A stretch of DNA of 64,000 nucleotides from Acidimicrobium ferrooxidans (GTDB taxonomy: Bacteria; Actinomycetota; Geothermincolia; Fen-727; Anoxymicrobiaceae), in NCBI GenBank assembly GCA_020723485.1, contig DYIU01000001.1, positions 757,850 through 821,849 on the forward strand. The letters are read 5' to 3'. A program made the position numbers and the translations under genes. Numbering within the stretch: position 1 is the stretch's first letter; every line of letters starts with the position of its first letter. The notes under the pieces were generated by a model, which searched no databases, was not told where the DNA came from, and was given only the letters and a program-made list of their open reading frames with translations. This document shows positions 225 through 63,995 of the stretch, piece after piece.

Positions 225-1631
225 ATGAGACACCCCAAGGACACTGACGAGCCGCACCTGCACCTCGACGGCGACCAACCACATCTATATCGGAAACGCC
301 TCAGGCGGCGCGAGCTGAAAGGGCACGTGGAAGCCCCCGGCGAGCCACATATGTACCTGGACGGCGACCAGCCCCACATCTACCGGCGGAAACGCAGGCG
401 GTGGACGTCGGTACTCAAGTGGGGAGCGCTTGCCCTCGTGATACTCCTGCTAGCGGGCTTCGCCTGGGGGTACGTATGGCTCAAGTCCAAGGAGTCCAGG
501 ATGCGCGTGGAGGGTATCGCGGACTCTCTCGATCCCAAGCAGAAGGGTCAGCCCGTGACGACGCTCGTGATGGGGGTGGACAAGGGGAGTGTCCCCGGCG
601 AAGAGGAGAGCCGCACCGACATCATGATGCTGGTGAGCGTCGACCCGGCCACCGACAAGGCGGCCGTTATCTCCATCCCCCGCGACACGAGGGTCGAGAT
701 CCCGGGGAAGAGCGGCTATAACAAGATAAACGCGGCTAACGCGTTCGGCGGCCCCGAGCTCGCGATCGAGACGGTCAAGGATTTCACCGGCCTCGACATC
801 AACCATTTCGTGGTGCTCGACTTCGAGGGTTTCAAGCATATCGTGGACGCGGTCGGCGGGGTCAGGATGAACATAGAGGTCGCGATCAACGACAAGTACG
901 CGGGCAAGGTCCCGGCGGGAGACCAGGTCCTCAACGGGGACCAGGCGCTGGCTCTGGTCCGGGCGCGCCACGACGTGAAGTCCGTCCCGGCGGGCGACCT
1001 GGACCGCATAAAGAACCAGCGGAAGTTCCTGCAGGCGATGCTCTCCACGGTGGCGCACACCCGCAACCCGTTCAAGATAATCAAGCTCATCGACGTGACG
1101 TCCCAGAACGTCAAGACCGACCTCACCTTCACCGAGATCCTCTCGCTGGGGCGCAGGCTCCAGGGGGCCGGCGGCAACCTCACCATGACCACCGTCCCCG
1201 GCAGGACAAGGGTGATGAACGGAGTATGGTATTACATTGCAGACATGCAGCAGTTCCAGTCGATGCTCGATACGTTCAAGACGAAGCAGGAGGTGGACGC
1301 GAGCGTCGAGGAGCAGGCGAGCTCAGAGGGCTCGTCGAGGTCCGGCATGAAGGTGGCCGTGCTGAACGGGGCCGGGACGCCCGGGCTGGCAGCGGCGGTG
1401 GCCGAGGCGCTGGCCAAGGAGGGATACACCGGCGTGAAGACGGGCAACGCCGAGAGCCGCTACAGCACGACTACGATATACTACTCGGACGATGAGAGCG
1501 AAAAGGCAGGGCTGGTTGCGGCGGACCTTGCCGGCGCCGAGGAGCCCGCTATCCAGAGCAGCGACGAGCTGACCTCCAGGTACGGCGTTGAGGTGCTGGT
1601 CGTCCTGGGAGCGGATTACCAGAGCCCGTGA
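225..1631 (+). CDS. LytR-CpsA-Psr (LCP) family cell-envelope protein with N-terminal membrane anchor
   Basis: ATG at 225; single TM helix (WGALALVILLLAGFAWGYVWL); LCP core reads MMLVSVDP...ISIPRDTRVEIPG...NKINAANAFGGPELAIETVKDFTGLDINHFVVLDFEGF; C-terminal LytR_C-like region (VAVLNGAGTPGLAA...TTTIYY). Cytoplasmic tail holds a tandem-duplicated ~30-aa motif. Confidence 0.8.
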   Translation: MRHPKDTDEPHLHLDGDQPHLYRKRLRRRELKGHVEAPGEPHMYLDGDQPHIYRRKRRRWTSVLKWGALALVILLLAGFAWGYVWLKSKESRMRVEGIADSLDPKQKGQPVTTLVMGVDKGSVPGEEESRTDIMMLVSVDPATDKAAVISIPRDTRVEIPGKSGYNKINAANAFGGPELAIETVKDFTGLDINHFVVLDFEGFKHIVDAVGGVRMNIEVAINDKYAGKVPAGDQVLNGDQALALVRARHDVKSVPAGDLDRIKNQRKFLQAMLSTVAHTRNPFKIIKLIDVTSQNVKTDLTFTEILSLGRRLQGAGGNLTMTTVPGRTRVMNGVWYYIADMQQFQSMLDTFKTKQEVDASVEEQASSEGSSRSGMKVAVLNGAGTPGLAAAVAEALAKEGYTGVKTGNAESRYSTTTIYYSDDESEKAGLVAADLAGAEEPAIQSSDELTSRYGVEVLVVLGADYQSP

Positions 1632-7890: not shown

Positions 7891-8019
7891 CCCCCGGTTT
7901 AGGCGCGTTTCAGGTCGCGCGGCATTTCGCCGATGAAAATCAAGGGTGGTCAAACCGCTGCTCCCGTTTACTGTGCCGGCACCAGCCCGATTGCGGCTGC
8001 AGGACCTGAGGGGTATTCG

Positions 8020-11000
8020 ATGGATGTCTTCGCTCGTCACAAGATGCTTTTTGTCGTTCCAGTGATAGCCGCAGCCGTCTGTATTGTGCTTACGGCAACC
8101 GGGCTGATAGTCCCGCCGGTGACAAAGGCGGCCGACCTCAACCAGGGCGACGTCGCCCGACTCCTCCAGAAGACCTGGTACATGGCGGAAGGCTACACCG
8201 GCGGCTCGTTCCAGACCTGGGTCGCGGTGCAGAACCCGGGGGCCCAAAAGGCCAACGTCTCGATGGAGTTCCAGGTGCCCGCGGGACGTCCGGCCCCCGC
8301 CCCTTACGCGTTCGAGCTGCCTGCGAAGACCAGGAAGAGCGTCAGGCTCGACGACATACCGGGACTCGAGAACACCGAGGTGTCCACCAGGGTCAGCGCC
8401 GACGTGAATATCTATGCCCAGCGCTCGATGTACTTCGACGAGAACGGCAGGCAGGGCGGAAGCAGCACCATGGCGGCGGCCATACCCGACTTCGAGTGGT
8501 ACCTCGCGGAGGGCTACACCGGCGGCACGTTCGAGACTTTCGTCTGCATCCAGAATCCCGGACCTGACACCTGCAAGGTAACGATGAGCTTCAACCTGCT
8601 GGCCGGCGGCGCCGCCGACCCGTACGCCTTTGACCTGCCCGGCCGCACCCGGCGGACGGTCAAGCTCGATGACCTGCCGGGGCTCATGGGCACGGACGTC
8701 TCCACCAGGGTCTCCGCCACCCAGCCCGTGGTGGTGGAGAGGGCGATGTACTACGACTATTTCGGGAAAGACGGCGGGGACTGCTCGCTCGGCCAGACCA
8801 GCACCGATACGGAATGGTACATCCCCGAGGGTTACACGGGCGATTCCTTCGACACGTACGTGCTGGTGCAGAACCCGGGAACCGAGGAGGCCGCCGTAAG
8901 GCTCAACTTCCAGCTCTCCGGAGGGGAGGACGGTGAAACGCGCGCGTTCAAGATGGCGCCGGGAACGCGCCGGACGGTGAAGCTCGACGAACTCCCCGGG
9001 TTGGACTCCGCCGAGGTCGCGACGGTCATATCCTCGGATAAGCCCGTTGTCGCGGAGCGGGCGATGTACTTCGACCGCGCCGGAAGCGACGACGGCCATT
9101 CCTCGCCGGCCAGCGATTCCATAAGCGACGTGTGGCAGGTCCCGGAGGGATGTACGAGCGACGGCTTCGAGACCTACTTGAGCGTGCAGAACCCCGGCGA
9201 CTCCCAAGTCGAGGTGACGCTCGAGTTCCAGCCGGCGCCTGGTTACGAGATAGAACCCTACAAGTTCGAGGTTCAGGCGGACGGGCGCGAGAGCGTGTCC
9301 CTCAACCGGATTGACGGTTTCCCCGAGACGGACGTCTCGACGACCGTGCGGGCCACCGCTCCCGTGATAGTCGAGTCCTCGATGTACTACGACCGAGTGG
9401 GAATGAACGGCGGACACAGTTGCCTGGGGGTCATCCCCAACACCCTGATGCCGAACGGGGTCATGCTGGACCAGGCGAGCGAGGCGCTCGTGACCTCGGC
9501 CCCGGACGGCCAGGTCGTTTTCAGCTCTTCCAACGACCTCATCGACTCCATCGAGGTGGACGACGTGGTCTGCGGCATGCCCTGTGAGGGCGCGCCGAGC
9601 GGGTTCATGAGGAAGGTGAAGGAGGTCCAGCACGCGGGCAGCGTGGTGACGCTCATCACCGAGCAGGCGGCCCTCCAGGAGTTCGTCAGGTACGGTTTCT
9701 TCTACGGCACCCACGACCCGGCCGGGGGCGCCCGGCAGGGCGGCTTCGACGTCACGGTCCCGTTCAACGTCGACCTTTCCTCTTACGGGAACATAAAGGG
9801 CGAGGTCTCCGTCGGCGTCAGCGTCGACATCTCGATACACATCAAGTGGAAGGGCTGGTGGATATTCAAGGTACCCGTCGGGTTCACGTTCAGGATGGCG
9901 GCGGGGTTCCAGCAGTCGGCGAACTTCACACTGACCGCCGGGGACAACTTCACGCTCGACAAAGAGGTGAAGATCAAGACGTTCTACCTGTCTCCGATAG
10001 ACGCGGGGCCGCTGGTGTTCTTCCCGAGGGTGAGCATCTACGTGGGCTTCACCGGCAACTTAGCCAGGGGAACGGTCTTGTCGTGCGGTGAATCCCTGTC
10101 CGCGCAGGCGGGCTTCGGGTACGACGACGGCTGGTACACCATATCCAACTTCGACCCGGGTGCCTCGGCGGACGCGAGCCTGCCGTACGCCTCCATGGAC
10201 GCCAAGCCCTACATCAGGGAGGCGCTCGAGTGTCTGCTCTACGACATCGTGGGGCCGTACATCGACGTGATGCAGTACATCAGGCTCCACTCGGACCCGG
10301 CCGCCGACCCGTGGTGGGTGGTGTACGCCGGTGTGCAGGCCGACGGCGGGATAGACATAGACCTGCTCATCTGGACCCTGAAGTGGCACGGGAAGATATA
10401 CGGGTACGAATGGCAGATCAAGAGCGCCCCCCCGAAGCCGAAGATTACCGGGATAAACCCCAACCCGAGCGCGACCGGGACGCAGGTGACGCTGAGCGGT
10501 TCGAGCTTCGGGGGCGCCAAGAGCCCGAGCTGGTACGTGACGTTCGGGGGGACACGTGCGTCCGAATACGGGCCCTGGTCCGACGGTTCAATAACGTGTA
10601 CGGTGCCGGGCGGCCTGTCCGGCCGGGTGACGGTGCAGGTGTTCAATGACGGAGGGTTATCAGCGGGGGCGGATTTCGGAGTGCAGCCCCACATAGGCGG
10701 CGTCTCGCCGCCATCCGGTAAAACCGGCTCCAACGTGACGGTCACCGGCACGTCCTTCGGCGCCTCGCGAGGCAGCTCGTACGTCTGCTTCAACGGGGTC
10801 GGCTCCCCGGGGTACTCCAGCTGGTCGGACTCCAGCGTGACCTGCGAGGTCCCTGCCGGCATCTCGGGCGTGGCGAACGTCACAGTGACAACCTCCGGCG
10901 GGGAGTCCAACTGGTTCCAGTTCAACGTGATACCCGACCTCGATGCTGTCACCCCTGCTTCCGGAACGATAGGGAGCGAGGTCAAGCTGACGGGCAATGC

Positions 11001-13977
11001 CTTCGGGGCGACTCGGGGCGGCTCTTACGTGACGTTCGGCGGGGTACAGGCGACCCAGTACACCGGCTGGGCGGACGGCGAGATACGCTGCCTGGTGCCC
11101 GCCGGAGTGTCGGGGACGGTCGACGTGACGGTGACAACGCCGGGAGGCACTTCGAACGCGGTCAAGTTCGGCGTGGCCCCGCACATCGACGGGCTCTCGC
11201 CCGGGTCCGGGACCGTCAACACCACCGTTACCATCGTCGGCAGCGGGTTCGGCCCGGCGCAGGGTGACTCCTACGTCAAGTTCGACGGAGTGAAGGCCGT
11301 GGCGTATGCATCCTGGTCTGACGGTCAGGTGGTCTGCAACGTGCCGTTCGGGGCATGGGGGATAACAAACGTCACCCTGGTCACCGGCGGAGGCACCTCC
11401 AACGGGCAGCGGTTCGTTGTGGTGCCGCACCTGGACATCATGGACCCGCAGTCGGGGATCGTAGGCAGCACCGTTACGCTGACCGGCAGCGCATTCGGGC
11501 CGACCAGGGGAAGCTCATACGTGATGTTCGGCGACACAAAGGTGACCACCTACACCAGTTGGAACGACGTCAAGATAGTCTGCAAGGTGCCCCTCGGGGC
11601 GGCCGGGCCGGTCCAGGTCGGCGTAACGACTGAAGGAGGTGCCTCCAACACGATGGGCTTCAGCGTCGTTCCCGACGTGGACGACGTGGACCCGAACGCC
11701 GGGGTCGTCGGCTCGCAGGTGACGCTGACCGGCACCGGTTTCGGCGGCTCCAGGGGGGACTCCTCCGTGACGTTCGGCAGCGTCCCGGTTACCGACTACG
11801 ACAGCTGGACCGACACGAAGGTGGTCTGCCACGTCCCGGTCGGCGCTTCGGGGAACGTGCCAGTGGTCCTGACGACCGCCGGCGGCTCTTCCGCGCCGCT
11901 CTACTTCAACGTCATACCACGTGTCGACGGGGTCGACCCGGGGTCGGGAGTGGTCGGGACCGCGGTCACGATGGCCGGCGCCGGCTTCGGTGACACCCAG
12001 GGCGACTCATTCGTGGCGTTCGGCGGGGTGAAGGTGGTGGACTACCAGTCCTGGGCGGACAACCAGGTAGTGTGCCTGGTCCCGCTGGGGGCGCACGGGG
12101 ACACAAGCCTGACGGTCACGACCGGGGGCGGCACCTCCGCCGGAGCCGACTTCAAGGTGATACCGAAGATAGACGGCATCGACCCGGCGGCAAGCCAGGC
12201 CGGGACCCAGGTCACGATAAGCGGCAGCGCGTTCGGCGACGACCAGGGGACCTCGTTCGTCACGTTCGGCCCGTTCACCGTCACGGACTACGTGTCATGG
12301 TCCGATACGCAGGTCGTCATCGAAGTCCCGAACGACGCGTTCGGGCAGGTGCAGGTCAGCCTGACCACGGACGGCGGCGAGTCGAACCAGGTCGGCTTCA
12401 ACGTGCTCCCCTACATCAACGACGTCCTGCCGCCCTCCGGAGGCATGAGCACCACGGTGAGCGTGGAAGGAAGCGGCTTCGGCACCTCCAGGGGGGACTC
12501 GATGGTCCTGTTCGGCACCACCGAGGCGGCCAGGTACACCTCCTGGTCCGACAGGGTCATAAAGTGCGTCGTCCCCGTAGGGCCGACCGCCGGGACCGTC
12601 CGGGTGGTGACCTCGGGAGGCACGAGCAACGGCGAGGACTTCACAGTATTCACGCCGACCTGGTACCTGTCAGAAGGAACGTGCGCCTGGGGTTTCAGCA
12701 CTTACATAACGATAATGAACCCCAACCCCGAGGCGCTTACCGCTTCGGTCACGTACATGATCCCCGAGGGCGCGGGCAAGGCCGGCGGCGGGGTCCCGCC
12801 GATGAAGGTGGACCTCCCGCCGAACAGCCAGACCACGATAAACCCGATGGACTACCTGAAGTTCGAGACCGACTTTTCCACGCGCGTGGATTGTCTTGAG
12901 GGGAAGATGATCGCCGTCGACAGGACGATGCAGTGGACCGGCGCGGGAGCCCCATCGTTCGAGAAGCAGTGCTCGGTAGGGACGGTGGCACCGGCCACCC
13001 ACTGGATGCTGCCCGAGGGCTCGGCGCTCTGGGGCTTCGAGACGTGGCTCACCCTGCAGAACCCGGGTGACGCACAGGCGAACTGCGAGGTCACCTACAT
13101 GATTGAGGGCGGCGAGCCCCGCAAGGTGACGCACAAGCTCGCGCCGAGGTCGCGGACGACATACGGACTGGTCGAGGAGGTCGGCCGGGTGGACGCCTCC
13201 GTCGAGGTAGACTCCGACCTGCCCGTCATCGCCGAGGGGGTCATATACAGGAACTCCCGCCGCGAGGGCAGCTCCTCTGTCGGCACCACGCTCCCGGCCC
13301 ACGGCTATTACGTCGCCGTGAAGGGCAGGGGCCTCTCGCACGACCAGTTCCTGGCGGAGGGCACCACCAGGGAAGGGTTCACCACCTTCCTGGAGCTGCA
13401 GAACCCCAACGCCGAGGCCGGCTGGGTCCGTGTCCAGTACATGACCGAGGACGGCGTCGTGACCCAGCCGGAGTTCACCATGCCGCCCATGTCACGCAAG
13501 ACGATCAGGGTGAACGACGTGCTCCCCGGCAGGGATTTCGGGATACACGTGCACGGCCAGCACCCGGTCGCCGCGCAGAGGACCATGTACTGGGGCGCCG
13601 GGACGCCGGCGGGCGAGGCGACGCACGGGACCATCGCGATGACCGACCTGCACAACGCGTTCTACTTCCCCGACGGGCAGACCTCCAACGGGTGCGAGAC
13701 GTACACCGTCCTCCAGAACCCGAACAAGGGAGCGGTCTGGGTGGAGGTCAGCTACCTCTCCGCCGAAGGCGATGTGCTGTCCCGGTTCAAGGTGGAAGTG
13801 CCGCCGGGCTCGCGGCGCACTCTCAACATGGCGGACAAGGTCAAGGACCGCAGGGCCTCGGTGCTCGCGCGCGTCGTCTGGAGCGAGCAGCGCATCATGG
13901 CCGAGCGTGTCATGTACTGGAACAACCGCGGCGCCGGAGCGTGCTCCATCGGAGGTTTCGAGGACAGCCTCCCGTAG
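8020..13977 (+). CDS. Giant secreted repeat protein (~1985 aa): 4 type-A repeat modules, a unique middle region, 9 tandem IPT/TIG domains, 4 type-B repeat modules
   Basis: ATG at 8020 preceded by GAGGGG, giving a signal-peptide-like N-terminus (MDVFARHKMLFVVPVIAAAVCIVLTATG); the ORF is open from 7933. Type-A modules begin WY[ML][AP]EGYTGGxFxTxVxxQNPG and end ERAMY[YF]D; nine 82-aa repeats match the IPT/TIG pattern (P.I.G..P..G..G..VT..G..FG...G.S.V.FG........W.D..I.C.VP.G..G.V.V.V.T.GG.SN); type-B modules begin W[YM]L.EG[TS]..WGF.T[WY][IL]...NP. Confidence 0.8.
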   Translation: MDVFARHKMLFVVPVIAAAVCIVLTATGLIVPPVTKAADLNQGDVARLLQKTWYMAEGYTGGSFQTWVAVQNPGAQKANVSMEFQVPAGRPAPAPYAFELPAKTRKSVRLDDIPGLENTEVSTRVSADVNIYAQRSMYFDENGRQGGSSTMAAAIPDFEWYLAEGYTGGTFETFVCIQNPGPDTCKVTMSFNLLAGGAADPYAFDLPGRTRRTVKLDDLPGLMGTDVSTRVSATQPVVVERAMYYDYFGKDGGDCSLGQTSTDTEWYIPEGYTGDSFDTYVLVQNPGTEEAAVRLNFQLSGGEDGETRAFKMAPGTRRTVKLDELPGLDSAEVATVISSDKPVVAERAMYFDRAGSDDGHSSPASDSISDVWQVPEGCTSDGFETYLSVQNPGDSQVEVTLEFQPAPGYEIEPYKFEVQADGRESVSLNRIDGFPETDVSTTVRATAPVIVESSMYYDRVGMNGGHSCLGVIPNTLMPNGVMLDQASEALVTSAPDGQVVFSSSNDLIDSIEVDDVVCGMPCEGAPSGFMRKVKEVQHAGSVVTLITEQAALQEFVRYGFFYGTHDPAGGARQGGFDVTVPFNVDLSSYGNIKGEVSVGVSVDISIHIKWKGWWIFKVPVGFTFRMAAGFQQSANFTLTAGDNFTLDKEVKIKTFYLSPIDAGPLVFFPRVSIYVGFTGNLARGTVLSCGESLSAQAGFGYDDGWYTISNFDPGASADASLPYASMDAKPYIREALECLLYDIVGPYIDVMQYIRLHSDPAADPWWVVYAGVQADGGIDIDLLIWTLKWHGKIYGYEWQIKSAPPKPKITGINPNPSATGTQVTLSGSSFGGAKSPSWYVTFGGTRASEYGPWSDGSITCTVPGGLSGRVTVQVFNDGGLSAGADFGVQPHIGGVSPPSGKTGSNVTVTGTSFGASRGSSYVCFNGVGSPGYSSWSDSSVTCEVPAGISGVANVTVTTSGGESNWFQFNVIPDLDAVTPASGTIGSEVKLTGNAFGATRGGSYVTFGGVQATQYTGWADGEIRCLVPAGVSGTVDVTVTTPGGTSNAVKFGVAPHIDGLSPGSGTVNTTVTIVGSGFGPAQGDSYVKFDGVKAVAYASWSDGQVVCNVPFGAWGITNVTLVTGGGTSNGQRFVVVPHLDIMDPQSGIVGSTVTLTGSAFGPTRGSSYVMFGDTKVTTYTSWNDVKIVCKVPLGAAGPVQVGVTTEGGASNTMGFSVVPDVDDVDPNAGVVGSQVTLTGTGFGGSRGDSSVTFGSVPVTDYDSWTDTKVVCHVPVGASGNVPVVLTTAGGSSAPLYFNVIPRVDGVDPGSGVVGTAVTMAGAGFGDTQGDSFVAFGGVKVVDYQSWADNQVVCLVPLGAHGDTSLTVTTGGGTSAGADFKVIPKIDGIDPAASQAGTQVTISGSAFGDDQGTSFVTFGPFTVTDYVSWSDTQVVIEVPNDAFGQVQVSLTTDGGESNQVGFNVLPYINDVLPPSGGMSTTVSVEGSGFGTSRGDSMVLFGTTEAARYTSWSDRVIKCVVPVGPTAGTVRVVTSGGTSNGEDFTVFTPTWYLSEGTCAWGFSTYITIMNPNPEALTASVTYMIPEGAGKAGGGVPPMKVDLPPNSQTTINPMDYLKFETDFSTRVDCLEGKMIAVDRTMQWTGAGAPSFEKQCSVGTVAPATHWMLPEGSALWGFETWLTLQNPGDAQANCEVTYMIEGGEPRKVTHKLAPRSRTTYGLVEEVGRVDASVEVDSDLPVIAEGVIYRNSRREGSSSVGTTLPAHGYYVAVKGRGLSHDQFLAEGTTREGFTTFLELQNPNAEAGWVRVQYMTEDGVVTQPEFTMPPMSRKTIRVNDVLPGRDFGIHVHGQHPVAAQRTMYWGAGTPAGEATHGTIAMTDLHNAFYFPDGQTSNGCETYTVLQNPNKGAVWVEVSYLSAEGDVLSRFKVEVPPGSRRTLNMADKVKDRRASVLARVVWSEQRIMAERVMYWNNRGAGACSIGGFEDSLP

Positions 13978-47568: not shown

Positions 47569-48348
47569 ATGGACGAGGTGCTGGTCGAGAAGAGCGGGAA
47601 GGTCTGCACGGTCATCATCAACCGGCCCGAGGTGCGCAACTGCGTGAACCGGCCGACCGCCGAGCGGCTCTTCGAGGCGTTCAAGGAGTTCGACTCCGAC
47701 GATTCACTGTGCGCCGCGGTGCTCTGGGGCCAGGGCGGGTACTTCTGTGCCGGGGCTGACCTCAAGGCGCTGGCGAGCGGTGACCTCAACCTGATTAATC
47801 CCCTGAACGAGGACATGAGCCTCTGCGCCCCGATGGGCCCGACGCGGCTGCTCCTCTCAAAGCCGGTCATAGCGGCCGTCGCCGGCTACGCCGTAGCCGG
47901 TGGGATCGAGCTCGCCTGCTGGTGCGACCTCCGAATCGTTGAGGAGGACGCGGTGTTCGGGGTCTTCGACCGCAGGTTCGGCGTCCCCCTCATCGACGGG
48001 GGCACCCAGCGGCTCCCGCGGCTGGTCGGCCTGAGCCGCGCGCTCGACATGATACTGACAGGCCGGGCGGTGGGAGCCCGTGAGGCGCTCGAATTCGGGC
48101 TTGCGAACAGGGTGGTCGGCAAAGGGGAAGCCAGGCTGGAGGCGGAGAAGCTGGCCGCCGAGCTCGCGGAGTTTCCACAGTCGGGGCTGCGGGGCGACCG
48201 GAAAGCGGCCTATCTCGGGTTCGGGCTCGAGCTCGACAGGGCGATGGAACTCGAGTACAGGGTCGGCATCGAGGCTATCACCAGCGGCGAGGCGGTCACG
48301 GGAGCCACCGAGTTCACCGGCGGCAAGGGAAAGCACGGGCAGTTCTGA
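47569..48348 (+). CDS. Enoyl-CoA hydratase/isomerase (crotonase family)
   Basis: Crotonase oxyanion-hole region (FCAGADLKAL) and conserved catalytic stretch (VAGYAVAGGIELACWCDLRI). Confidence 0.85.
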   Translation: MDEVLVEKSGKVCTVIINRPEVRNCVNRPTAERLFEAFKEFDSDDSLCAAVLWGQGGYFCAGADLKALASGDLNLINPLNEDMSLCAPMGPTRLLLSKPVIAAVAGYAVAGGIELACWCDLRIVEEDAVFGVFDRRFGVPLIDGGTQRLPRLVGLSRALDMILTGRAVGAREALEFGLANRVVGKGEARLEAEKLAAELAEFPQSGLRGDRKAAYLGFGLELDRAMELEYRVGIEAITSGEAVTGATEFTGGKGKHGQF

Positions 48349-48457
48349 CTCCCGGCGCGCTGCGTGACAGCACGAAGGAGGCGCGGTGCCCGGGCGTTGC
48401 CTCTGTGGCAAGAGGTCGCTGGCTGGCTTTCCGCCCGGGCCCCACCGCCGAACTTCG

Positions 48458-51211
48458 CTAGTCGGTTCCGCTCACCCCGAGTGACGCGTGCGCAGCCTGC
48501 CGGTACGTCCCGTCCGCGCCGTGCCAGTACATCGCTCTCTCGGCTATTACCGGCGCATCGGAGGTTACCAGGGTGGAGACGCTCCACTCACCGGGCAGCG
48601 TGTCGGCCACGCTGAGGGTCTGCCTGCCTCCCGGCTCGAGGGGCGGCAGAGGCGGGCCGGGCACACTCCCCTCGAGCGTCATGTACGTTATCAGCGGGTT
48701 GGCAACTTCGGTCCCGGCGTTGAAGATTGTGATCCAGGTCTCGAAAGAGCCGAAGGTGCCCGAGCCCGTTGAACCTTCGGCGAAGCACCACTCCACCGCA
48801 CCGGCCGTGGCGCCGATCGACCCGTGCGCCGCCTGCCGGTAGGTCCCGTCAGAACTGTGCCAGTACACTGAGCGCTCCGCGACTATCGGTACGTCTGATG
48901 CCACATGCGTGGAGAAGCTCCACTCACCGGCAATGCCGACGTTGTACGTCTGCCTCGTACCCGGCTCCAGCGGGGGAACTATGTGCCGGGTCGCGGATTC
49001 AATGTTGACGTTTGCCGTCTCGGTCCCCGGGTTCTGAACGGTGATCCAGGTCTCGAACGAGCCGTGGCCGTCCGAGCCCGCGGAGCCCTCCGCGAAGTAC
49101 CAATCCGTCGCCCCGGCTGTGACCCCGATGGAATCGTGCGCCGCCTGCCGGTAAGCCCCGCCGGAACCGTGCCAGTAAACCGCCCTCTCCGCGACGATCG
49201 GTACGGTGGAGCTGACCCGGGTTGAGACGCTCCATTCGCCGGGAACCGTGTCCCCAACGCTGAACGTCTGCCTGGTCCCGGGCTCCAGAGGCGGCACGGC
49301 CGGTCCCGCTACCTCGCCCTCCGGAGTCATGTAAGTCATCACCGGGAGGGCGGTTACGGCTCCCGGATTCTGCAGTGTGATCCAGGTCTCGAACGAGCCA
49401 CGCGAGTCAGAGCCGGTGGAGCCTTCAGCGAAGTACCAGTCGGACGCACCCGCGTTGACCCCGATGGAATCGTGAGCCGCCTCGCGGTAGCCGCCGTCAG
49501 CGCCGTGCCAGTACTGCGCCCTTTCGGCAGCTATCGGCACGTCCGAGGTGACATGGGTGGACACGCTCCACTCATCCGGGACCGTGTCACCCACCGAGTA
49601 CGTTTGCCTGGTCCCCGGCTCCAGGGGCGGGACGGGCGGTCCGGCCACCTCGCCGCCCGGCGTCATGTAGGTGATCACCGCCTGCGCCGACTGGTTCCCC
49701 GGGTTCTGAAGGACAATCCATGTCTCGAAAGACCCACGGGCGTCAGCGCCGGTGGAGCCCTCGGCGAAGTACCAGTTCTGTGCCGTATCCGGGAGCTCGG
49801 GGTTGTTTACGACCGTCTGTGTATCGCTCGCGGTCTTGTAGTAACCGGTCTGCTCGTCCTTTATCTCGGCGATGTTTATCAATAGGACGTCCCCGAAACG
49901 CGGGAACTGGTCCTGCGCCTTGAGGGTCAGCCTGTAGCTGAACTCGCTGGTGGCCGAACCGCCCTCGAGCCGCCCGACCTGCCATCGGACCTTCCCGCCG
50001 TCGATTACGCTCCCCCCGTCCGTGATGCCGGTCACGCTCTCCACGAGGCTCTCGTCGTAGTCGTCCATGACCGCTACCTGGTTCGCGGCGGTCTGGCCGC
50101 GGTTCTCGAAGCTCACGGTGTACTCCAGGGTGTCCCCGGGCGAGATGAGCCCGTCGCCGTCGCGGTCGACGGCCAGCCGCCCGCTTTTCTCGATATTGAA
50201 GTCGACCATCGCGGCGAACCAGAACCAGTCGAAGTAGAAATCGGCGTAATACCCGTCGTCGTCCGTGTTGACGAGGTCGACCGAGTACCTGGCTGTGTCC
50301 GTGGCGACGTGCCCGGCCAGAGGGTAGGTCCTGTCGTCCCAGCTGTTCCCGTCCGTATCCTCGCAGACGTCGTCCTGGTGGAAGTCCGGAGCGTTGCGGT
50401 TGCCCCACTCGTCATAGGAGCGGAAGTCGTAGGACATTGTGTCCGGGGCGTGGCCTTCGGATGTCAGGATGCCCTTGTAGGCGGAGGGGAGTGTCGGCCT
50501 GGTGGTGAAGTCCATGGCGGAACAACTCGCCTGGTGATGCGAGTCCATGATGTTACAGCCGTCGGCGATGCACACCTCGCCCATGGTGATCGACTGGTGA
50601 GTGAAGACTATTACGAGGCTTGCCCCCCACCACGCCTTCAGGGGAAGGAGGCTGAGCGGCCCGGTCTCGACGTGGTACATCCGGTTGGGCTCGTCCCCGA
50701 TGAGGTCGGTGACCTCCGCGCGGTACAGGCGGCGGTGGTTGACGCCGTTCATCATCTCGTAGCCGACCTGGTCGACGTCGCCCCCCTCGTCCCTCCAGCC
50801 GGTCAGGGGCGTGCCCTCGAACGTTATCTCGCCGGACCCGGCCGGCGCCTGGTCCCTTCCCGGTATGGAACGCCCGTCGGTCCCGAAGTTCCCTCCCCAG
50901 TAGAGGAAGGCTCTCTTTATCTCAGCACCTTCCGGCACATGGTTTATCGTGGCGTTACCGGGGGACATGTCGATGTACATCTGGCTCCTGTCCGGGGCCT
51001 CGTGCATCCCGATACCCTCGGAAGTTATCCCCACGTTACCGGCAGCCCTGAGGAAGACGGTGGTGGAGCCGTCCTTACCGACCGACCAGTCAATGGTCTC
51101 GTCGTATGACAGGGCCGACTTGTCCGCCGCAGCCGCCGGCCCGTACGCGCCGATGATGAGACAGGCCAGTATGAAAACCGCCGGCAGGACGATAAGGCGT
51201 CTTCTCAACAT
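48458..51211 (-). CDS. Secreted repeat protein (917 aa), paralogue of the giant protein: unique N-terminal half plus 4 type-A repeat modules
   Basis: ATG at 51211 with AAAGGA RBS; signal peptide (MLRRRLIVLPAVFILACLIIGAYGPAAAA); C-terminal half holds four ~110-aa modules beginning [WC][YF]FAEGS.G....GSFETWI.[VLI].N.G and ending AER[AS].YWH. Confidence 0.8.
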   Translation of the reverse strand: MLRRRLIVLPAVFILACLIIGAYGPAAAADKSALSYDETIDWSVGKDGSTTVFLRAAGNVGITSEGIGMHEAPDRSQMYIDMSPGNATINHVPEGAEIKRAFLYWGGNFGTDGRSIPGRDQAPAGSGEITFEGTPLTGWRDEGGDVDQVGYEMMNGVNHRRLYRAEVTDLIGDEPNRMYHVETGPLSLLPLKAWWGASLVIVFTHQSITMGEVCIADGCNIMDSHHQASCSAMDFTTRPTLPSAYKGILTSEGHAPDTMSYDFRSYDEWGNRNAPDFHQDDVCEDTDGNSWDDRTYPLAGHVATDTARYSVDLVNTDDDGYYADFYFDWFWFAAMVDFNIEKSGRLAVDRDGDGLISPGDTLEYTVSFENRGQTAANQVAVMDDYDESLVESVTGITDGGSVIDGGKVRWQVGRLEGGSATSEFSYRLTLKAQDQFPRFGDVLLINIAEIKDEQTGYYKTASDTQTVVNNPELPDTAQNWYFAEGSTGADARGSFETWIVLQNPGNQSAQAVITYMTPGGEVAGPPVPPLEPGTRQTYSVGDTVPDEWSVSTHVTSDVPIAAERAQYWHGADGGYREAAHDSIGVNAGASDWYFAEGSTGSDSRGSFETWITLQNPGAVTALPVMTYMTPEGEVAGPAVPPLEPGTRQTFSVGDTVPGEWSVSTRVSSTVPIVAERAVYWHGSGGAYRQAAHDSIGVTAGATDWYFAEGSAGSDGHGSFETWITVQNPGTETANVNIESATRHIVPPLEPGTRQTYNVGIAGEWSFSTHVASDVPIVAERSVYWHSSDGTYRQAAHGSIGATAGAVEWCFAEGSTGSGTFGSFETWITIFNAGTEVANPLITYMTLEGSVPGPPLPPLEPGGRQTLSVADTLPGEWSVSTLVTSDAPVIAERAMYWHGADGTYRQAAHASLGVSGTD

Positions 51212-51429
51212 GACAGGTTCCTTTCTCTCCAGCCTTCGCTCATCAGGGCGCTCAGGCCGACCTTTACCACGCGGGGATGTTCTTCACCAGCGCGGGAGCA
51301 CCCGCCGCCATCGCACTCGTCATCATCCGCCAGCGGGTAGCGCGGGAGGGAGCATTCCCCCGACCACGGCCCGGAGTACGCCCTGAGGTACTGCGCTATC
51401 CAGTTCCGCGGGAGTGGTTCGTACTTCAT
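51205..51429 (-). CDS. Small hypothetical Cys-containing protein (74 aa)
   Basis: ATG at 51429 preceded by GAGGAG-type RBS; four cysteines; stop region overlaps the start of the downstream secreted-protein gene. Confidence 0.35.
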   Translation of the reverse strand: MKYEPLPRNWIAQYLRAYSGPWSGECSLPRYPLADDDECDGGGCSRAGEEHPRVVKVGLSALMSEGWRERNLSC

Positions 51430-51645
51430 CGCTTCTCCTCGTGGTTGGCAGGGGTTTCGCGCATTTGCCCTCCTGTGACTCGCCGCCGCCGTAAGAGTGC
51501 ACCTTCCCGTTTCAGGTTATGTAGTGAGTCAATAATGCGTACTAGCAATATAGGTTGGACAGTGGGTTAATTTCAATAGCCGCAGCGGGAATTGTTGATA
51601 AAATACCCTGAATAGGGGATTATCTGACGTTCACTTAATGCAGTA

Positions 51646-51693
51646 TTGACAAAAAACCATCTGAAATATATTATTAATTATCCAATTAATTAA
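51646..51693 (+). promoter_or_regulatory. Canonical sigma70-type promoter with ATTAATTA operator-like motifs upstream of the second TetR gene
   Basis: TTGACA (51646-51651), 17-nt spacer, TATTAT (51669-51674); two ATTAATTA motifs (around 51673-51680 and 51685-51692) overlap the -10 and predicted start; embedded in a ~160-bp AT-rich divergent region. Confidence 0.55.
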
Positions 51694-51702
51694 GGAGTTC
51701 AA

Positions 51703-52326
51703 ATGGCGAGGACGCCGGCAGGCCCGGGACCGGAAGAGAGGAAGAAGCAAATACTGGAGGCCGCAATCGAGGTGTTCGGCCAGAAGGGATACGGCAACGC
51801 GACCGCCGTGGAGATAGGTGAGAAGGCGGGTGTATCATCAGGGACGGTATTCCACTATTTCGGGAACAAGAAGGAGCTGTTCCGCGAGGCTCTGAGGAAC
51901 TGCGCCGTCGATCTTCGGGCGGCGATGGAAAGGGGCAGCCCACCCACCGACGACATAAAGACGTTTCTCAAGATGACGTCGAGGAACTTCTTCGCGTATC
52001 TTCTCGAGAACCCCATGAAGGTGAAGATCCTCTTTCACAGCCCCGAGACCCTCGCGGACCAGGACATCAAGTACGAGTACCGGCGCGTGATGGAAGACCT
52101 CTACCAGTTCGTGTACTCGATGCTCGAAGGTGCCCGGAACAGGGGAGAACTGCCGGAGGACCTCTATATCCAGGGAATCGCCGAGTACATGCTGGGTTTT
52201 AGCTTCTTCACGTCATATCTCTCATTCCTGGGGATAGAGTGGTTCCAGGGCGGCGGGGTATTCCGGTTTACCGACGGCGACTACCTCATCGACTACCTGA
52301 CCAGGCCGCAGGCCGGCCGGGCGTGA
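51703..52326 (+). CDS. TetR-family transcriptional regulator
   Basis: AAGGAG RBS; helix-turn-helix region (KKQILEAAIEVFGQKGYGNATAVEIGEKAGVSSGTVFHYFGNKKELF). Confidence 0.8.
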   Translation: MARTPAGPGPEERKKQILEAAIEVFGQKGYGNATAVEIGEKAGVSSGTVFHYFGNKKELFREALRNCAVDLRAAMERGSPPTDDIKTFLKMTSRNFFAYLLENPMKVKILFHSPETLADQDIKYEYRRVMEDLYQFVYSMLEGARNRGELPEDLYIQGIAEYMLGFSFFTSYLSFLGIEWFQGGGVFRFTDGDYLIDYLTRPQAGRA

Positions 52327-61961: not shown

Positions 61962-63359
61962 CTAGTCGTCCCAGGCGCCGATGGTCTCCTCCCCCGAGGT
62001 GCGGGCGGAAAGAGACCCCGCCTCGGTCCATATGTAAGTGGCGCGCTCGCAGATTATGTTCTGTCCGGGGGTGAGGCTCCTCACCCTGATCGCATACCTG
62101 CCCGGCGTGGTCATGGTGTCCGCCAGGTTGTAGGTGGCTCGCGTGTTGGCAAGGACAGTCCTGTTGATGGTCGCGTCCGGAAGCACGCCCTCACCGTAGT
62201 ACTTCATCTCGATGTTGACGTCCACCGGATTTGGATTCTGCACGCAGGTCCAGGTCTCGTACAGCAGTCCGCAGTTGCCTCCGGGGAGGTACCAGTAGGC
62301 GTGAGACCCGTCAACCCCTATGGAGTCGTGGCCCACCTCGCGCCAGATGCTTCCGGAGCCCCAGTACATCGGTCGCTCGGCGAGGAGCGGGAGGGTGCCC
62401 GACACCTTGATGGACAGGTCGGTGTTGGGCGCCTGCTCGTTGACCTTGATGGTCTCGCGTGTCTGGGGGGCCATCGGGAATGGAGCCATTACGATCTGGC
62501 CGCTCGGCTTCATGTAGGTGATGGTCACCTGGTTCACAGCCGCGTTGGGATTCTGGATGCACAGGAATGTCGTGAACCCCCAGGCCGTCGTTCCCTCGGC
62601 GAGGAAGAAGTCGTTGGCCGGGGTAGTGGCGCCGACCGACTCGTGACCCATCCTGCGGGAGTCCCTGTACATGGACCTTTCGCAGATTATCGGCTGGTTT
62701 CCCAGCACCTGGATGGAGGCGTCCGCCGAGCCTATGTCGTTCGTCATGTTGTAGGACGCGCGAGAATTAGAGGGGACCGTCTTGTTGACGGCGAACGGCC
62801 CGAAACCCTCGATCATGTAAGTGATGATGATGTCTGTAGCTGCCACGTTCGGGTTCTGCACCGTTAGCCAGGTCTCGAAGCCCCATGCGCTGGAGCCCTC
62901 CGGGAGATACCAGATGTTGTTCGGGGCGGTGACGCCTACAGATGAGTGGGTCTCCAGGTTCTGCTCCACTTCGGAGCCCGGCCCACCCATCCAGAACATA
63001 GTCCGATCGACGGCAATAGTCCTGGTCGGGTCGAGGCACTCCACCAGGGTGCTGAAATCCCGCTGGCCAACTGCAGTCAGGGGATTTACGGTCACTCGGC
63101 TCTCGGAAGGCATCGTGAACGGGGGCTGGACGAGCGGGCCCAGGTCCGCGGTCATGTAGGTTATGCGGATCTGGACGTCAACGGTGTTCGGGTTCTCTAT
63201 GTTGATGTAGGTGCCGAAGCCCCAGGCGGTAGTGCCTTCTGCGAGGTACCAGGTCGGGAGCGGGCCCGCCACGGCCGCCCCTCCGCCGAGGAGCATTAGC
63301 GATGCCGCGCCGGCGCACATCATAAGGGCTACCAGAATCGAGATCATCTTCCGTGCCAT
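61962..63359 (-). CDS. Secreted repeat protein (~465 aa) made of signal peptide plus 4 type-B repeat modules
   Basis: ATG at 63359 (MARKMISILVALMMCAGAASLMLLGGGAAVAG); the upstream part of the ORF (to 63470) is translated palindromic element; four ~110-aa modules beginning WYL[AP]EG[TS].AWGF.T[YW][IL]...NPN. Confidence 0.75.
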   Translation of the reverse strand: MARKMISILVALMMCAGAASLMLLGGGAAVAGPLPTWYLAEGTTAWGFGTYINIENPNTVDVQIRITYMTADLGPLVQPPFTMPSESRVTVNPLTAVGQRDFSTLVECLDPTRTIAVDRTMFWMGGPGSEVEQNLETHSSVGVTAPNNIWYLPEGSSAWGFETWLTVQNPNVAATDIIITYMIEGFGPFAVNKTVPSNSRASYNMTNDIGSADASIQVLGNQPIICERSMYRDSRRMGHESVGATTPANDFFLAEGTTAWGFTTFLCIQNPNAAVNQVTITYMKPSGQIVMAPFPMAPQTRETIKVNEQAPNTDLSIKVSGTLPLLAERPMYWGSGSIWREVGHDSIGVDGSHAYWYLPGGNCGLLYETWTCVQNPNPVDVNIEMKYYGEGVLPDATINRTVLANTRATYNLADTMTTPGRYAIRVRSLTPGQNIICERATYIWTEAGSLSARTSGEETIGAWDD

Positions 63360-63440
63360 CACACCCACCTCCGTAAGGTTGCCTGCTTCAAGAGTACTCC
63401 TGCGGGCAATGACGGTCGAGAGCGCAGTTCCCTTACATGC

Positions 63441-63529
63441 GCACAATGGGGTCAGGTCATTTTGTTGCATTCAAGGAGTCTGGGATGAGTATGGTCAAAA
63501 TGCAACAAAATGACCTGACCCCATTGTGC
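63441..63529. repeat. Full palindromic element of the GGGGTCAGGTCA family with extended arms (~28 bp, 31-nt loop)
   Basis: Core arms GGGGTCAGGTCATTTTGTTGCA (63448-63469) and TGCAACAAAATGACCTGACCCC (63501-63522); the palindrome extends outward to GCACAATGGGG...CCCCATTGTGC; lies between two minus-strand genes. Confidence 0.8.
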
Positions 63530-63533
63530 ACCG

Positions 63534-63995
63534 CTACTCTTCGTCCCACCAGAACGGCGGCTTGGAGCAGTCGAAATAGGGCTCGCCGCTGCGCTTGATG
63601 ATGTAGACCGGCATACCTACGAAGCACTGCTCGAACAGCGCCTCGACGTCAGCCATGCGCATGCGGATGCAGCCGTGGGAGACGGAGTAACCGATGGAGC
63701 CCGTGTCGCTGGTCCCGTGGATGAGCACGCCGCCCCCGTTGATGTGCATCGCCCTCGTGCCGAGAGGGTTGTTGGGGCCGGGAGGTATCATGTCCGGCAT
63801 GTTCTCCATCCAGGTCGACCCGCGGTTGTACCAGGTGGGGTTCTTCTCCATCCTGACTATCTTCCACTGGCCGATGACCGTGGGGTACTTGGCCGAGCCG
63901 ACTGCGACCGGGTACTTTGCCAGGAGCTTGTCGCGGTCGTAGAGCGAGATGGTATGCGCCTCCTGGTTCACCAGAAGCAGCTTGCCGACGGTCAC
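63534..63995 (-). CDS. L,D-transpeptidase (YkuD domain), probably truncated at the window edge
   Basis: Catalytic motif HGTSDTGSIGYSVSHGCIRM; no signal peptide within the window, so the N-terminus likely lies beyond position 64000. Confidence 0.7.
   Translation of the reverse strand: MTVGKLLLVNQEAHTISLYDRDKLLAKYPVAVGSAKYPTVIGQWKIVRMEKNPTWYNRGSTWMENMPDMIPPGPNNPLGTRAMHINGGGVLIHGTSDTGSIGYSVSHGCIRMRMADVEALFEQCFVGMPVYIIKRSGEPYFDCSKPPFWWDEE

Follow-up and report, generated by a model that had tools for sequence, protein, structure and literature searches.

The 64,000-nucleotide stretch of DNA analysed here, hereafter the window (positions 757,850 to 821,849 of contig DYIU01000001.1, assembly GCA_020723485.1), carries a gene for a predicted secreted protein of 917 amino acids (aa), which ends in four tandem repeat modules. 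The position, length and strand of this open reading frame (ORF) are those proposed in an initial annotation of the window, which had also counted the four C-terminal modules correctly. The codon bias of the gene is genome-like (G+C content at third codon positions, GC3, of 0.84), an NCBI contig of 1.1 Mb encodes an identical protein, and two full-length orthologues were found (49% and 46% identity); a whole-protein scan of genome contigs with the 917-aa query returned no relative. The parts of the gene are as follows:

48458..51211, minus strand: gene for the 917-aa secreted protein (from the ORF list; ATG start; stop codon 48458-48460)
51125..51211, minus strand: putative signal peptide, aa 1-29 (RRR, a hydrophobic core and AAA|AD)
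50201..51124, minus strand: rare DUF3344-like all-beta head, aa ~30-337 (Pfam DUF3344, 20.3 bits)
49802..50200, minus strand: CLIPPER (DUF11) CnaA-like stalk domain, aa ~338-470
49439..49774, minus strand: ASRAH module 1, aa 480-591
49103..49438, minus strand: ASRAH module 2, aa 592-703
48791..49102, minus strand: ASRAH module 3, aa 704-807 (8 residues shorter than the other modules and than module 3 of the orthologues)
48461..48790, minus strand: ASRAH module 4, aa 808-917, up to the C-terminus

The N-terminus reads as a Sec signal peptide, a call made by eye from the sequence, without a predictor. The segment MLRRRLIVLPAVFILACLIIGAYGPAAAA, followed by DK, is the sole hydrophobic segment of the protein, and both orthologues likewise begin with such a segment, so that the signal peptide of the initial annotation is borne out. 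A lipoprotein signal ('ILAC', Cys17) was rejected as unlikely, the cysteine not being kept in the orthologues, and a Tat signal was rejected because the RR pair is absent from them. Neither an LPXTG motif nor a C-terminal membrane segment is present in the protein.

The window holds 16 modules of the same kind, distributed over the 917-aa protein (four), a giant protein of 2014 aa (eight) and a protein of 502 aa (four; gene at 61962..63470, minus strand). The modules outside the 917-aa protein form three further blocks of four, or tetrads:

8176..9447, plus strand: type A tetrad at the N-terminus of the 2014-aa protein, aa 82-505 (Pfam DUF5719, 100.4 bits for the protein)
12661..13974, plus strand: type B tetrad at the C-terminus of the 2014-aa protein, aa 1577-2014
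61965..63251, minus strand: type B tetrad of the 502-aa protein, aa 74-502 (Pfam DUF5719, 28.9 bits for the protein)

These modules are ASRAH domains of the ASRT superfamily and of the DUF5719 lineage, and thus belong to a domain described since 2009 (de Souza, Iyer and Aravind, PMC2739507) rather than to a new one. First, a profile built from the alignment of all 16 modules and searched with hmmsearch against all PDB sequences reached ASRT (2ii7, E = 7.2e-6) and TM1070 (1nc7, E = 1.8e-3), with no further significant match in the PDB. Second, the AlphaFold2 model of aa 472-917, computed on a 23-sequence tetrad alignment, has eight strands per module (predicted local distance difference test, pLDDT, 94.2; predicted template modelling score, pTM, 0.92), and the only PDB structures that Foldseek matched to it at probability 1.0 were 1nc7 (template modelling, TM, score 0.68-0.71) and 2ii7/2ii8/2ii9; over ASRT and TM1070 together the TM scores range from 0.53 to 0.71 at 22-28% identity. 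This agrees with the superfamily's eight-stranded beta-sandwich of about 100-115 residues. Third, ASRAH domains are recognised by a tryptophan that opens strand 1 and a near-invariant asparagine at the end of strand 2 (PMC2739507). The strand-1 tryptophan (W-Y-F-A-E-G) occurs in all four modules of the 917-aa protein and in most of the 16, the rest having phenylalanine; the asparagine closing strand 2 (Q-N-P-G) is found in 16/16 modules, and the strand-2 cleft signature (E-T...N-P) varies little or not at all across them. The initial annotation had named similarity confined to low-complexity segments as the observation that would speak against a shared domain; this objection fails, since module-versus-module BLASTP aligns whole modules, at E values of 1e-6 to 1e-20, and the similarity is not of the low-complexity kind. 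The short module 3 has IESATRH where the other modules, and module 3 of both orthologues, have ITYMTPxGExxGP; it still folds in the AlphaFold2 model (pLDDT 87-91).

With respect to Pfam, the DUF5719 (PF18986) gathering cut-off of 26.2 bits is passed by the giant and 502-aa proteins and by most of the tetrad homologues described below. The 917-aa protein falls below it (not listed at E ≤ 0.01; module 1 alone, 14.7 bits). Several tetrad homologues pass the ASRT cut-off, such as P0073 (48 bits). A literature search for DUF5719 found nothing. Secreted ASRAH domains have been described either as dyads, in an actinomycete lipoprotein now covered by DUF5719, or as tetrads, in amidase fusions of Chloroflexi; they were predicted to bind sugars or peptidoglycan through a cleft on one sheet, and proposed to form hetero-tetramers akin to the ASRT/TM1070 homotetramer (PMC2739507). 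The canonical DUF5719 lipoprotein has a lipobox cysteine, two ASRAH domains and family-specific N- and C-terminal extensions (PMC2739507), and its gene lies next to WhiB and glycosyltransferase genes. Its modules are homologous to those of the 917-aa protein, which differs from it in having four of them, no conserved lipobox and no WhiB/glycosyltransferase neighbourhood.

The closest known counterparts are the secreted tetrads fused to N-acetylmuramoyl-L-alanine amidases in Chloroflexi (PMC2739507), which share with the 917-aa protein the fold, the Trp/Asn signature, the eight strands and the four tandem copies. The 917-aa protein differs from them in its passenger (the DUF3344-like head and the CLIPPER domain), in its host (Geothermincolia) and in the unusual likeness of its modules to one another (59-78% identity in the 16-module alignment). 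The 917-aa tetrad also has the fold and, as predicted by its model, the four-domain assembly of ASRT (Anabaena, 2ii7) and TM1070 (Thermotoga, 1nc7). These two are cytoplasmic single-domain proteins that assemble from four chains, whereas the tetrad is one secreted chain, and their H/C cleft residues are replaced in the 917-aa modules.

The initial annotation held that the four modules closely match the type A modules of the giant protein, and spoke of three paralogues in the window. Taken at its strongest, this would make the 917-aa tetrad a recent local copy of the type A tetrad 35 kb away, a reading that we consider highly improbable. Type A is indeed the best in-window match of the 917-aa tetrad (E = 1.5e-55 to the giant's N-terminus in BLASTP with composition-based statistics), by a slim margin (34.6% identity; 191 bits versus 147 and 141 bits), and the QNPG and EG-x-TG motifs are common to both. 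Module by module, however, identity to type A is only 25-40%, hardly different from that to the giant's C-terminal modules (27-37%) or to the modules of the 502-aa protein (25-37%), so that 'closely match' was an overstatement. The nearest non-orthologous tetrads, which stand at 46-55% identity, are carried by FG-GAP, TIG and subtilase proteins of other metagenomes. As identity to type A is only about 34%, we conclude that the 917-aa tetrad forms a third subfamily that did not arise by a recent local shuffle; the three tetrad subfamilies of the window are thus not a local family produced by recent expansion. The same conclusion is favoured by the conservation of the full architecture in the orthologues at 46-49% identity, by a 4-residue insert after EGSTG that is private to the 917-aa modules among the modules of the window, and by their mixture of motifs, TYMT and W-H-G being as in type B and QNPG as in type A. 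The tetrad of the 502-aa protein and the C-terminal tetrad of the giant correspond module for module (44, 48, 45 and 32% identity).

The giant protein itself (7933-13977, plus strand) begins with a membrane segment and bears tetrads of two subfamilies, one at each end; between them lie nine TIG domains and an unassigned middle of about 500 aa (aa ~505-1000). Its exact sequence is absent from a collection of 15 billion proteins, in which both the 917-aa and the 502-aa proteins are present.

The homologue set comprised 26 first-round proteins and 120 second-round ones (146 in total), the latter being the best of at least 1770 protein clusters with a tetrad that a tetrad-alignment profile search recovered at E ≤ 1e-10. 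Exactly four modules were counted in 26/26 and 115/120 of these proteins, respectively (141/146), the remaining five second-round homologues having five modules. The tetrad occupies the extreme C-terminus in 26/26 and 106/120 (132/146); in the other second-round proteins it is N-terminal (8/120) or internal (6/120). The first-round homologues carry it behind very different N-terminal parts. No protein with six or more modules was found among the 146 homologues, apart from the giant with its 4+4 modules; since such proteins would outscore the others and top the lists, a freely varying copy number is not supported. Furthermore, in 52% of the comparisons between proteins the best match of module i is again module i, versus 25% expected by chance, so that in most lineages the tetrad is an old four-part unit. 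The initial annotation had regarded the single module as an autonomous, shufflable domain. That the module is autonomous and present in different protein contexts holds. What had been seen is, however, the known ASRAH domain and not one private to this genome; it is shuffled in blocks of four rather than singly, and the 917-aa protein is not a close paralogue of the type A block.

In the 917-aa lineage the four positions have become unusually alike. Each module shares 70-81% identity with its best partner within the protein, versus 60-70% with any module of the orthologues, which indicates, at the level of sequence, that concerted evolution probably keeps the modules of this lineage alike with their number held at four. 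At the DNA level the module copies (48461-49774) are 66-80% identical, so that a very recent conversion tract is absent. That the number stays at four despite concerted evolution may reflect selection for a closed four-fold assembly.

The fusion partners of the tetrad bear on its role. In the best 120 tetrad proteins they included CAP/YkwD (15 proteins), TIG (11), the YkuD L,D-transpeptidase (9), fn3 (9), Amidase_3 (3), Amidase_2 (2), SpoIID (2), Peptidase S8 (2) and Peptidase_M23 (1), the fusions to peptidoglycan enzymes being confirmed by hmmscan. Five kinds of enzymes acting on the cell's own peptidoglycan (YkuD, Amidase_2/3, M23 and SpoIID) have thus been joined to it independently, and in them the tetrad sits where wall-binding modules usually do. 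The amidase fusions of the 2009 description (PMC2739507) recur among our homologues, in which the range of partners (YkuD, M23, SpoIID, CAP, TIG, S8 and others) is far wider than in that description. The window offers a further instance:

63534..63995, minus strand: YkuD L,D-transpeptidase gene, directly upstream of the 502-aa tetrad gene (Pfam YkuD, E = 3.9e-26)

In many other genomes YkuD and the tetrad are joined in a single chain of about 685 aa (P0060, P0062 and P0066, for instance), and the two neighbouring genes are the split form of this common fusion. The YkuD ORF may run past the end of the window.

We propose, with moderate confidence, that the 917-aa protein is a wall-retained surface protein made of a head, a stalk and a pseudo-tetrameric, glycan-binding anchor. 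On this proposal, the acidic protein would be exported by the Sec pathway of its host, an uncultured actinobacterium of the class Candidatus Geothermincolia, and consist of three parts, namely the DUF3344-like head, one CLIPPER/DUF11 stalk domain and the C-terminal block of four ASRAH domains. The latter would pack into a compact single-chain pseudo-tetramer, like the ASRT/TM1070 homotetramer, and bind a wall glycan of the same cell, either peptidoglycan or a polymer attached to the wall. The tetrad would thereby target or anchor the protein to the wall non-covalently, as SLH triplets or LysM repeats do elsewhere, and the head would be displayed at the cell surface for target binding. The domain identities, the fold, the fixed count of four, the C-terminal placement, the broad distribution and the fusion partners are findings of this analysis, whereas wall binding and the display of the head are deduced. 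A similar combination of a fixed small number of tandem units, a pseudo-symmetric terminal block and varied passengers, including wall hydrolases, is seen in SLH triplets, LysM and CW_binding repeats; their folds are unrelated to ASRAH, and the likeness would concern function alone. SLH and LysM repeats are proven wall binders.

More tentatively, we suggest that the four-ASRAH block could be a general, hitherto unrecognised wall-targeting module of Actinomycetota and Chloroflexota, a single-chain pseudo-tetramer occurring in at least 1770 protein clusters. L,D-transpeptidases and autolysins may use it, and so may adhesin-like proteins, the 917-aa one among them.

The same partners can be read differently, the tetrad being an ordinary carbohydrate-binding module (CBM) for an external polysaccharide, and the 917-aa protein being released, or acting as a lectin-like adhesin, rather than tied to the wall. 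ASRAH domains are predicted to bind sugars, in a cleft on one of their sheets; the subtilase, PHB-depolymerase-type esterase, beta-helix and propeller partners of the tetrad are typical of CBM-bearing secreted enzymes, and some carriers are apparently diderms. We nevertheless regard this reading as unlikely, since the repeated independent fusions to enzymes of the cell's own peptidoglycan indicate a wall ligand, and the near-constant C-terminal position is more like that of anchor modules than that of CBMs.

A third reading appears less probable still, namely that the tetrad serves protein-protein assembly, as a closed pseudo-tetramer docking to a surface layer or to further tetrads, and has lost glycan binding or kept it as a secondary function. 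It draws on the tetrameric state of free-standing ASRT and TM1070 and on the protein partner bound by ASRT (PMC2739507), on the extensive domain-domain interfaces that the pTM of 0.92 implies, on the giant protein with a tetrad at both ends, and on one homologue with a weak match to the S-layer protein Slr4 inside the tetrad region. A scaffold would have no need of the near-invariant strand-2 cleft signature in the 16 modules, however, and no partner gene is kept beside the orthologues.

Several observations weigh against the wall-anchor proposal itself. First, no experimental paper on ASRAH was found in the literature, and the binding of sugar or peptidoglycan is a prediction of 2009. Second, most partners in the best 120 proteins are not wall enzymes (CAP, TIG, fn3, subtilase and oxidoreductase-like domains), and a general role in carbohydrate binding or oligomerisation suits them equally well. 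Third, some tetrad carriers bear the label Acidobacteria or Vicinamibacterales, diderm groups in which an exposed wall anchor is less obvious. Fourth, the occurrence of a tetrad at each end of the giant protein is odd for a simple anchor. Fifth, the pseudo-tetramer is inferred from a model, through its pTM of 0.92. Sixth, the gene neighbourhood is not conserved among the orthologues and gives no functional hint. Lastly, a tetrad search of 50,697 phage genomes found none, and no phage endolysin with a tetrad was found in these genomes or in the IMG/VR contigs, a result that neither supports nor refutes wall binding.

Two contigs classed as viral in IMG/VR do encode tetrad proteins, neither of them an endolysin (L084, 4878-6266; L085, 4845-6875). 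One protein is a stand-alone tetrad of 462 aa, the other has 676 aa and a weak ETX_MTX2 match, and one of the two genes lies near a Gp3-like recombination directionality factor.

The window also contains a gene for an LCP (LytR-CpsA-Psr) wall-polymer ligase with a LytR_C domain (225-1631, plus strand). LCP enzymes join glycopolymers to peptidoglycan in Gram-positive bacteria, and this gene is relevant to which wall polymer the tetrad might bind.

Taken alone, the 917-aa gene encodes an uncharacterised surface protein of an uncultured actinobacterium, made of already catalogued domain families. The wider pattern is the more useful one, that is, a fixed block of four modules, C-terminal and repeatedly fused to peptidoglycan-remodelling enzymes. 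If the tetrad does bind the wall, a new class would be added to the wall-anchoring modules of deep-branching Gram-positive lineages, together with a handle with which to predict their surface proteomes.

Regarding the N-terminal part of the protein, the initial annotation had noted a region of about 470 aa unlike the giant protein, and we indeed found that the N-terminal 476 aa have no similarity to the giant protein, to the 502-aa protein or to the rest of the window. The head is a distant relative of DUF3344 (PF11824), not a member of that family by the Pfam rule, as judged from its sequence score, which lies below the gathering threshold (20.3 versus 27.2 bits; E = 4.8e-4, aa 90-228); it would represent a divergent and very rare branch. 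A word-index search with the head alone (321 aa) missed even the identical protein, and an exhaustive HMMER profile search of 1.84 billion representatives was used instead, which returned 34 relatives at E ≤ 1e-3, of which 10 reach E ≤ 1e-10. Distant relatives of the head pass the DUF3344 cut-off (P0035, 35.1 bits; P0038, 40.2 bits), and relative P0026 shares the full head-stalk-tetrad architecture. The AlphaFold2 model of aa 30-476 is all-beta (pLDDT 80.9, pTM 0.79), and fold searches with it gave generic sandwich matches only, with no specific solved relative of the head. In the literature, DUF3344 figures as an extracellular domain whose function is ambiguous.

The stalk domain passes the DUF11 (PF01345) gathering cut-off (24.6 bits), has a CnaA-like fold and matches structure 9ifr (PMC12617251). 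The 917-aa protein has a single CLIPPER domain and no long stalk. Residues K342, D383/D386 and N446, which are candidates for an intramolecular Lys-Asn isopeptide bond and its catalytic Asp, are invariant in three orthologues at the sequence level; an isopeptide bond is not common to all DUF11 domains.

Other head relatives are built differently. Five of them (P0027-P0031; about 630-656 aa) have the head and a DUF11-like domain, and end in a conserved cysteine-containing region (C-x-GA-x-S...GC...YENVT) and a C-terminal membrane segment, without a tetrad. The gene of one orthologue (P0003; L003, 6930-9466) lies a few kb from a CbiMNQ-type Co/Ni transporter; on Methanoperedens plasmids, DUF3344 surface proteins are encoded beside CbiMNQO transporters (PMC9674854), a parallel that is possibly coincidental.

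The region upstream of the 917-aa gene contains the following features:

51205..51429, minus strand: ORF of 74 aa with 4 Cys (GAGGAG 5 nt before the ATG; its stop overlaps the start of the 917-aa gene, ATGTTGA)
51430..51702, no strand: AT-rich intergenic region, flanked by the divergent TetR gene and by the unit formed by the 74-aa ORF and the 917-aa gene (G+C 43%)
51703..52326, plus strand: divergent gene for a TetR-family regulator (Pfam TetR_N)

The small cysteine-containing ORF announced by the initial annotation is present directly upstream, overlapping the start of the 917-aa gene by 7 nt. Its coding status is doubtful, with a GC3 of 0.75 that is lower than that of the real genes here. 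It was rejected as a conserved partner or leader peptide, having no homologue (it stands alone in a set of about 15 billion proteins) and no counterpart ahead of either orthologous gene. As to the AT-rich promoter region that had also been proposed there, the AT-richness is confirmed (35.5% G+C at 51500-51699, versus 64.5% for the window), and the promoter is suggested by the likeness of hexamers only: TTGAAA-18-TATATT on the minus strand (51576->51547) and TTGACA-17-TATTAT on the plus strand (51646-51674), the latter facing the TetR gene. A 23-nt imperfect inverted repeat (51657-51706; 74% complementary, 4-nt spacer) overlaps the TetR start and this second promoter-like site and, going by its sequence, could be an operator. 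Nothing but position links the TetR gene to the 917-aa gene.

An Rfam search of 48200-51800 found no RNA family, the sole match (M23 RNA, E = 0.58) being due to chance, and no terminator-like site was found downstream of the 917-aa gene. Its neighbours encode a ferredoxin, an SDR protein, an enoyl-CoA hydratase, the TetR regulator, a DUF975 protein and others; a conserved operon was rejected because the neighbourhoods of the three orthologues differ. The remainder of the window is devoted to ordinary metabolism and repair, and Lon, used as a marker of the host class, is 88% identical to its counterpart in a Geothermincolia metagenome-assembled genome and 70% identical to that of Ca. Solincola.

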